This document shows positions 29,444 through 29,625 of a stretch of 64,000 bases of DNA, piece after piece. The stretch's first letter is position 1; each line of letters starts with the position of its first letter. The notes under the pieces were generated by a model, which saw only the letters and a program-made list of their open reading frames with translations, did no database searches and was not told the origin of the DNA. The stretch lies in NCBI GenBank assembly GCA_963749705.1, contig CAVVNQ010000007.1, positions 179,135-243,134 on the forward strand, given 5' to 3'. This DNA comes from an uncultured Chloroflexia bacterium (GTDB lineage Bacteria > Chloroflexota > Limnocylindria > Limnocylindrales > CSP1-4). The translations under genes and the position numbers were made by a program.

Positions 29444-29511
29444 TCCCGTCGATCGCTGGGAAACCAGCGGTTCCCCGGGTCACCGGCGAGCGCCAGTAGC
29501 TGGAGAATGCT

Positions 29512-29625
29512 GTGTCCGCTCGCCCCAACCGCATCCGCCCTTTCCTCGTCGCCCTGGCATCGGCCGGGATCATCGCCCTCCTCAGCGCCGCGGCTGCCCT
29601 CGCGCAGACGCCCTATCCGCACTGA
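29512..29625 (+). CDS. Unannotated 37-aa secreted pro-peptide (signal peptide + mature QTPYPH), candidate quorum-sensing peptide
   Basis: GGAG RBS 6 nt before GTG; MSARPNRIRPFLVALASAGIIALLSAAAALA|QTPYPH*; basic n-region, hydrophobic h-region, A-L-A cleavage site; high GC3 codons. Confidence 0.8.
   Translation: MSARPNRIRPFLVALASAGIIALLSAAAALAQTPYPH

Follow-up and report, generated by a model that had tools for sequence, protein, structure and literature searches.

A conserved mini-gene for a signal-bearing peptide and its divergent HTH-TPR regulator in Limnocylindria: a candidate RRNPP-like pair in the phylum Chloroflexota

The locus and its features

Limnocylindria are abundant, uncultured Chloroflexota of soil, peat and freshwater. 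The window analysed here is a stretch of 64,000 nucleotides (nt) from the genome of one of them, an uncultured Chloroflexia bacterium of the order Limnocylindrales (assembly GCA_963749705.1, contig CAVVNQ010000007.1, positions 179,135 to 243,134 of the forward strand). An original prediction made from the letters of this window had reported a 37-codon open reading frame (ORF) preceded by GGAG-N6-GTG and absent from the supplied ORF list, which was thought to carry a secretion signal and to release the hexapeptide QTPYPH. The window sequence and the ORF listing place this mini-ORF exactly there. A Pfam scan of the neighbouring proteins additionally uncovered a divergent regulator combining a helix-turn-helix (HTH) domain with tetratricopeptide repeats (TPR), which had been overlooked and without which the described context was incomplete. 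The mini-ORF has its own promoter and Shine-Dalgarno (SD) sequence, is under purifying selection, encodes a signal-peptide-like product and is almost always paired with one HTH-TPR regulator. The features of this pair are the following:

29414..29443, + strand: promoter-like sequence TTGACT-N18-TAGCAT
29502..29505, + strand: Shine-Dalgarno sequence GGAG, 6 nt before the GTG, invariant in four genomes
29512..29625, + strand: mini-gene for a pre-peptide of 37 amino acids (aa), GTG start, TGA stop at 29623-29625, translation MSARPNRIRPFLVALASAGIIALLSAAAALAQTPYPH
29512..29604, + strand: predicted Sec signal peptide, residues 1-31, with R4/R7/R9 in the n-region, a hydrophobic core and A-L-A at -3 to -1 of a putative cleavage site
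29605..29622, + strand: tail QTPYPH, putative mature peptide, fitting the family core x-[F/Y/W]-P-[H/R/K]
29046..29426, - strand: small XRE-family HTH protein, 126 aa, GTG start at 29426, Pfam HTH_3 6.8e-10, divergent from the mini-ORF
27833..29173, - strand: HTH_3 and TPR regulator, putative cytoplasmic peptide receptor, 446 aa as listed, behind the XRE gene

Evidence that the mini-ORF is a gene

The window DNA has a guanine plus cytosine (GC) content of about 70% and holds 41 ORFs of at least 30 aa within 4 kb; open frames are cheap at such a composition, so that the frame by itself proves nothing. The GC content by codon position is 0.73/0.59/0.86 in the mini-ORF, 0.76/0.52/0.88 in the neighbouring TPR gene and 0.75/0.54/0.89 in a neighbouring EAL-domain gene, and both flanks, when read in the frame of the mini-ORF, are flat at 0.54-0.66. 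Syntenic DNA was retrieved from three genomes of the same genus (88, 77 and 70% identity). In these and the window, the GTG start, the SD sequence, the reading frame and the stop column agree, and similarity is lost right after the stop. Among eight genus-level ORFs (a ninth, L041, which has one extra codon, was omitted), the ratio of nonsynonymous to synonymous polymorphism (pN/pS) ranges from 0.14 to 0.98 and thus stays below 1 in all 28 pairs, and the variable sites of the genus-level mini-ORFs are distributed 19/15/26 over the three codon positions. The promoter-like sequence is the sole match in 1 kb, for a mean of 0.0 in shuffled sequences, and is conserved in the genus alignment; TTGACC-N17/18-TAcGAT and AGGAG likewise precede the peptide gene in two distant clades. 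Codon-position GC, conservation of start, frame and stop, pN/pS below 1, the promoter and the outcome of the genome scan described below (80/93 versus 0/93 loci) all raise the mini-ORF above chance, and it is almost certainly a real gene. The exact 37-aa protein was not found in a collection of 15 billion proteins, in keeping with its absence from the ORF list, and peptides of its relatives are present there as "hypothetical protein" only.

Pairing of the mini-gene with the HTH-TPR regulator

Public genomes contain 436 related stretches. Nearly all of the 80 best bear a Chloroflexota or Limnocylindria label, with titles such as "uncultured Chloroflexia bacterium", "Candidatus Limnocylindria bacterium" and "Candidatus Limnocylindrales bacterium"; the closest of them has 94% receptor identity. 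By profile search, with three unpublished genomes (G231, G121 and G177) included in the genome tallies, the receptor is present in 116 of the 201 genomes and 38 of the 49 genera of the window's own family. Among 401 sampled genomes of the phylum, matches to the receptor profile were obtained in 11/23, 16/16 and 2/2 genomes of three families of the same class (f1, f3 and f4, respectively, the f4 matches being weak); outside these families, two weak matches were obtained in one other family and none in the four genomes of the small-genome sister family f2. No peptide ORF was found beside the distant receptor relatives in f4 (about 29-30% identity), and five genomes of the window's genus, 90-97% complete, have neither gene.

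A total of 110 receptor loci were collected, 96 of them unique by DNA, and 93 with at least 600 nt of upstream sequence were retained (L015, L033 and L081 were dropped). On their divergent strand, a strict scan accepted ORFs of 25-60 aa if the N-terminus was charged, if a hydrophobic window reached at least 1.9 and if the tail, limited to 18 residues, ended in [FYWILM][PA]x0-3; as an alternative, it accepted a short ORF ending in GGG..[FYW]P. The scan matched 80 of the 93 loci, and each of its three controls, the opposite strand of the same region and both strands inside the receptor gene, gave 0/93. When all divergent mini-ORFs are counted, 89 of the 93 loci have one (81 signal-bearing, one signal-bearing without a canonical start at L064, and seven short), which can be broken down into 72 found by the strict scan, nine with variant tails, the one without a canonical start and the seven short ones. 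This count includes tails outside the regular expression (TPYSH, TLYSP, GTGPW, SPFVH and others). One of the 89 loci, L037, belongs to the unpublished genome G231, and the count without it is 88/92. A second receptor copy occurs in nine genomes; eight of these copies are accompanied by a divergent signal-bearing mini-ORF of their own, whose tail differs, and the ninth has an in-frame TGA. An adjacent pro-peptide gene, one of the traits by which RRNPP(A) systems are recognised, is therefore present at 89 of 93 loci and beside eight of nine second copies. The converse search, with a profile of 79 precursors against the 201 family genomes, led to the same pairing: the 20 best matches (E 4.9e-18 to 1.8e-12) lie 149-481 nt from a receptor match on the opposite strand, and the weak matches are signal peptides of long proteins.

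The arrangement of the loci differs in detail. A small XRE gene stands between peptide and receptor in 36 of the 89 loci; in the other 53 there is none, and 95-225 nt separate the start codons of peptide and receptor. The genes beyond the peptide vary by clade (LigD-like at 29 loci, NifU-like at 19, EAL at five), and the flanks of the loci contain no recurrent transporter, protease or modifying enzyme and no conserved histidine kinase or other sensor. At L034, there is no peptide ORF within 629 nt of upstream sequence. A small ORF (…GQGLAEYALILALIAV…) beside the receptor at L027 and L034, two related loci, is one that we take to be Flp-type pilin-like. L042 and L043, two contigs of one metagenome-assembled genome, have identical receptors and peptide ORFs, which reflects a recent duplication or else a duplicate produced in assembly.

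The peptide family

The 82 signal-bearing mini-ORFs share an n-region arginine, a hydrophobic core, an AXA site and a tail of 6-13 residues with G-G-G-x-[F/Y/W]-P-[H/R/K] as its core. The window peptide has the composition of a substrate of the Sec pathway and type I signal peptidase: R4, R7 and R9, followed by FLVALASAGIIALLSAAA and by A-L-A before the Q. In a 79-row precursor alignment, only the columns of Arg9 in the n-region and Ala31 at position -1 are at least 90% conserved, and the hydrophobic core varies freely. A heuristic for the cleavage site, which sometimes chooses an earlier AXA, places A at -1 in 75 and G in seven of the 82 precursors, with V, A, S or T at -3 in 80 of 82. Export of the pre-peptide and its cleavage by type I signal peptidase are likely on these sequence characters. 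Most tails consist of a Gly-rich spacer and a core x-[F/Y/W/I/L]-P-[H/R/K], as in GGGGAPYPH, DGGGTIFPK, GSGGGPWPK and GGGGPPLPH, and those of one large clade read (V/A)(T/S)GGGDFPR followed by two more residues. At five loci (L065, L107, L115, L131 and L139), a lipobox-like V(A/M)AC is found at the junction of signal and tail (e.g. ...TVAACSNGGGFP), which would yield a lipid-anchored peptide of 8-9 residues instead of a free one.

The original prediction is supported in part. Its core, a real gene with an N-terminal Sec/SPase I signal and a short tail as the putative product, agrees well with these comparative data, through the conserved Arg9 and Ala31 and through a clade, described below, that keeps the tail without the signal. 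Its suggestion that the N-terminal Gln could cyclise to pyroglutamate does not extend to the family: Gln at +1 is confined to the genus-level clade of the window, and the position is mostly G or D elsewhere. Since these G or D residues are followed by a Gly-rich spacer, the active core may be the last four or five residues and not exactly QTPYPH.

The same prediction had considered that the ORF might be the truncated remnant of a longer secreted protein, in which case relatives should continue the frame. No relative extends it. The stop column is conserved in the four genomes, all of the 82 signal-bearing homologues end 6-13 residues past the predicted site, and the long ORFs that match the peptide profile do so weakly and at model positions 1-36 only, the generic signal part. 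No evidence in favour of a remnant was found, and this explanation, whose probability is practically nil, was rejected.

Signal-less variants and the pattern of tails

In one monophyletic receptor clade (support 99), placed beside signal-bearing sisters, the peptide gene is replaced by 12-codon ORFs such as MRSAHTGGGWPS, without the hydrophobic part. They were found at loci L078, L083, L095, L097, L099, L101, L110, L132, L134, L135, L138 and L140, with an SD-like GAGGGAGA upstream. In all 12, the ATG, the codons for GGGWP and the TAG do not vary; synonymous changes are present, and the sequence after the stop diverges. The tail motif is retained over the 89 loci, those with signal-less ORFs among them. 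Because this clade still keeps GGGWP, start and stop in the absence of a signal, the tail is, as far as sequence conservation tells, the selected part of the peptide.

These variants also bear on the possibility that the 37-aa product is not cleaved at all but is a single-pass membrane protein, with its N-terminus inside and six residues outside, working with the regulators. Small hydrophobic proteins often partner regulators, and a hydrophobic stretch of some 21 residues, preceded by positive charges, would suit such a topology. However, the best-conserved column of the hydrophobic half is the -1 Ala of AXA and not a helix face, the remainder being variable, and the sister clade lost the hydrophobic part and retained the tail alone, which makes a membrane protein quite improbable.

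In a receptor tree of 93 rows, the tail types follow receptor clades: QTPY(P/S)H in nine rows (support 100), PP(F/L/I)Px within a nine-row clade (100), GPWPx in three rows (99), GGGDFP in 21 rows (97) and the short GGGWP in seven rows (99). The tails of close receptors vary at the aromatic and last positions, as in TIIPR, TIFPR and TIYPH. Where two receptor copies coexist, their tails can be quite dissimilar; in one genome, a short GGGWPS ORF accompanies one copy, and the tail at the other ends in PPPGWP.

A further explanation is that the peptide is exported and cleaved but acts outside the cell, its target being for example a different receptor, other cells or a surface, with the HTH neighbours regulating its gene only. 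It draws on the same evidence for a real signal-bearing mini-gene, and is consistent with the generic fold match of the receptor reported below. Regulation alone would nevertheless hardly explain a near-obligate pairing at 89 of 93 loci together with the pairing of eight of nine paralogues. The surroundings offer no conserved histidine kinase or other sensor, and the 12-aa forms would stay in the cytoplasm, with the TPR protein. We consider this explanation unlikely.

The putative receptor

The receptor has both a TPR-type domain and an N-terminal XRE-type HTH, two further traits of RRNPP(A) receptors, with Pfam matches to HTH_3 (2.1e-9, residues 39-90) and TPR_12 (2.6e-18); TPR_MalT also matched (2.7e-8), below the cut-off of that model. 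An AlphaFold2 model built with 29 homologues (mean predicted local distance difference test 86.8) comprises disordered residues 1-27, the HTH (28-93) and 18 paired TPR helices (102-444), i.e. about nine TPRs, without any strand or membrane segment. As modelled, this architecture is that of the HTH-bearing RRNPP receptors. The true start is probably further in than the listed one, since the model is disordered over residues 1-27 and the alignment of homologues begins at about residue 9-30. The XRE ORF (stop 29046) overlaps the listed start of the HTH-TPR gene (ATG 29173) by 128 nt.

Structural comparison with Foldseek and VIA-align ranked eukaryotic LGN-type TPR domains first (Z 27-29.1), followed by peptide-bound RapJ (4gyo, Z 26.3) and apo NprR (5dbk, Z 26.2, 339 residues, model 98-446), phage Rap proteins with pheromones (8rsv, 8rst and 8rte, Z 25.6-25.9) and NprR-NprX (4gpk, Z 24.4); no AimR structure is among the best 50 structural matches. 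By sequence, the best match of the receptor profile in the PDB is PlcR (2qfc, 1.6e-8), over the HTH only (profile positions 20-80), and other matches are RapH (3.3e-6, over part of the TPRs), the HTH of ComR (5.2e-5) and that of SinR; NprR is not among the best 60. As regards a descent from Firmicutes receptors, Z scores of 24-26 to NprR and Rap have to be set against 27-29 to LGN, and the sequence overlap is generic only. A complex prediction combining receptor residues 98-446 and the whole 37-aa pre-peptide scored 0.01, against a mark of 0.32, and speaks neither for nor against binding. The same genome encodes machinery that could serve export and uptake, with three Peptidase_S26 matches (type I signal peptidase) and six SBP_bac_5 matches (Opp-type binding proteins).

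No NCBIfam model reached its cut-off for the receptor, the XRE protein, the peptide or a 414-aa neighbour described below. The best NCBIfam match of the receptor is HaaT (1.5e-8), a TPR protein of cyclophane RiPP (ribosomally synthesised and post-translationally modified peptide) biosynthesis. Three-residue cyclophanes have an aromatic-X-X shape, like the tail core [F/Y/W]-P-[H/R/K], and the mini-gene could on this basis encode a RiPP precursor, with the TPR protein as a pathway protein or regulator. But the HaaT match amounts to 33 bits for a cut-off of 1125, hence to generic TPR similarity. Neither a radical-SAM nor another modifying enzyme is conserved in the flanks of the loci or found among the 16 proteins examined within 10 kb in the window, and a RiPP precursor would not normally have a Sec signal where its leader should be. 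A RiPP precursor is therefore very improbable.

Divergent region and genomic surroundings

Three other features of the window adjoin the pair:

29443..29462: 20-bp palindrome TTCCCGTCGATCGCTGGGAA, just after the -10 box, partly conserved in the genus alignment
29619..29653: 11-bp perfect tandem repeat GCACTGACCGA, 3.2 copies, beginning in the last codon and stop of the ORF, so that the ORF end is copied three times
29841..30653, + strand: EAL-domain gene (Pfam EAL 1.5e-42), 216 nt downstream of the mini-ORF on the same strand

The 85-bp divergent region contains the palindrome, a candidate operator, and overlapping -10 boxes. The latter lie face to face around CTAG at 29434-29443, TAGCAT on the + strand and TAGTCT on the - strand. 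The -10-like TAGTCT (29439 to 29434) is seven bases upstream of the XRE start, which is kept as GTG or ATG in the four genomes, and on inspection the XRE mRNA is probably leaderless. In other clades, a TA..CT box is found 7-8 nt before the ATG of the receptor gene, which likewise suggests leaderless mRNAs. The 11-bp repeat probably arose by slippage that duplicated the ORF end, and nothing indicates a role for it; a variant unit GCACTGACCTC is present in about four copies in the closest relative (G020), and no repeat was seen in G009 or G010. A search of positions 29000-30000 against Rfam gave no match at E values up to 1.

The EAL gene is possibly a co-transcribed output of the system, in the genus of the window only; a downstream EAL gene is found at five loci across the collection. 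The gene arrangement also raises the question of whether the mini-ORF is a cis-acting upstream ORF or leader of the EAL gene, or is untranslated. Such a role would agree with the short distance on the same strand, with no terminator-like site detected between the two, and with an 8-bp perfect stem, GGCGAGCG / CGCTCGCC at 29485-29492 / 29517-29524, whose 24-nt loop encloses the SD sequence and the GTG. Both arms of this stem are invariant across the four aligned genomes. But the downstream genes vary by clade, pN/pS is below 1 and the amino-acid motif is conserved though its distance to the stop varies, all of which leave a leader extremely improbable. In the closest relative (L002 of G020), a 131-aa ORF (1878-2273) and not an EAL gene comes after the mini-ORF; its first 36 or so residues are shared with a frame upstream of the EAL gene of the window, suggesting a rearrangement just downstream of the cassette.

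Further downstream in the window, a 414-aa ORF (30752-31996, + strand) has a signal-like N-terminus and a Pro/Ala/Thr-rich repeat (TASPAPKP, three times), without Pfam or NCBIfam match. The wider context is ordinary chromosome (MTHFR-like, IclR, peroxidase-family KatG, SDR, PfkB, MFS, alpha/beta hydrolase and lipoate ligase genes), and no phage or integrase domain was found among the 16 neighbouring proteins scanned within about 10 kb.

Comparison with known peptide-receptor systems

One close parallel is NprR-NprX of the Bacillus cereus group, which also combines an XRE-type HTH and about nine TPRs with a small adjacent pre-peptide gene carrying a Sec-type signal. NprX is exported and then re-imported by Opp, and nprX lies downstream of nprR in the same direction. 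The TPR part of the window receptor (98-446) aligns over its full length with 5dbk (Z 26.2, 339 residues), and it aligns with 4gpk at Z 24.4, but identity in the structural alignments is only 10-13%. In the window, moreover, the peptide gene lies upstream in divergent orientation, the final size would be reached without any protease other than signal peptidase, and the host belongs to Chloroflexota, not Bacillota. AimR-AimP, the arbitrium of Bacillus phages, also has a signal-bearing pre-peptide with the active hexapeptide at its C-terminal end and an HTH-TPR receptor; it is phage-borne, aimP lies downstream of aimR and the peptide is matured by extracellular proteases. The window locus differs by its place in an ordinary chromosome, where no phage genes turned up over about 10 kb.

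The streptococcal Rgg-SHP and ComR-XIP systems have a divergent peptide gene and an HTH-plus-repeat receptor, as well as peptides without a classical Sec signal; the hydrophobic SHP and XIP leave the cell through a dedicated ABC transporter. The 12-codon variants resemble these Sec-less peptides, but they are hydrophilic and no transporter is conserved nearby. PlcR-PapR of the Bacillus cereus group resembles the window pair in that PlcR is the best PDB sequence match (2qfc, 1.6e-8), stands at Foldseek ranks 28 and 31 and, to judge by the titles of its PDB entries, is an HTH and TPR regulator binding the C-terminal part of a secreted small peptide. It differs in that the sequence match covers the HTH only and in that PlcR has 293 residues for 446 in the window receptor.

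The TPR domain of the window receptor is also close to peptide-bound Rap proteins of Bacillus, its phages and plasmids (4gyo at 26.3; 8rsv, 8rst and 8rte at 25.6-25.9), and several paralogous receptor-peptide pairs with differing peptides per genome are likewise a property of Rap-Phr. Rap proteins have no HTH and are phosphatases or anti-activators. Phr peptides are reported to require further proteolysis (PMC11343458). RRNPP signalling via cytoplasmic HTH-TPR receptors is presented as a feature of Firmicutes/Bacillota in two publications (PMC10075063, PMC9765709). Within the texts that our literature search covered, supplements aside, neither an RRNPP system in Chloroflexi/Chloroflexota nor quorum sensing in Limnocylindria was found.

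Proposed mechanism and its significance

We propose that the mini-ORF and the regulator form an RRNPP-like pair of secreted peptide and cytoplasmic receptor. The 37-aa pre-peptide would be exported by Sec and cut by type I signal peptidase after A-L-A (A31), freeing QTPYPH outside the cell; in relatives, the released peptide would typically be (D/G)GGGxx[F/Y/W]P[H/R/K]. The peptide would be taken up again, for instance via an Opp-type permease, and would lodge in the TPR groove of the divergent HTH_3 and TPR protein, its cognate cytoplasmic receptor. Binding would alter the action of this regulator, and that of the XRE protein, a putative accessory repressor, on the shared 85-bp divergent promoter region. 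Such a circuit would follow the logic of RRNPP quorum sensing in Firmicutes.

Several observations weigh against this proposal. The fold match is not specific to RRNPP proteins, LGN scoring higher (Z 29.1) than RapJ (Z 26.3), and the sequence likeness to PlcR, Rap and ComR concerns generic HTH or TPR stretches, with no NCBIfam cut-off reached. With about 21 residues, the hydrophobic stretch has the length needed for a membrane anchor. The 12-residue variants, present at seven of the 93 loci and six more times in the f3 sample, cannot use Sec without a signal, so that export is either non-essential or follows another route. No peptide ORF is found at four of the 93 receptor loci (L034, L047, L053 and L071), and the downstream genes are not conserved, so that they give no pointer to the regulated output. 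Linkage and vertical descent alone would also give the clade pattern of the tails, which is consistent with the proposal and not decisive. Secretion, cleavage, uptake and binding are themselves steps that we infer. With these points taken into account, the full chain from secreted peptide to cytoplasmic receptor appears slightly more probable than not.

At the scale of the class, we tentatively suggest an RRNPP-type quorum sensing in Limnocylindria, in which signal peptidase alone would free a signal of 6-9 residues, with many "pherotypes", orthogonal paralogues and, in one lineage, a 12-residue cytoplasmic form that would act as an intracellular switch. The cassette is directly testable without cultivation, since it consists of synthesisable ligands of 6-9 residues, a soluble receptor and an operator region below 100 bp, and the natural series of tails together with the leaderless 12-residue variants provides a ready specificity panel. 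If true, this proposal would extend peptide-based cell-to-cell signalling to another phylum, including major lineages of soil and freshwater.

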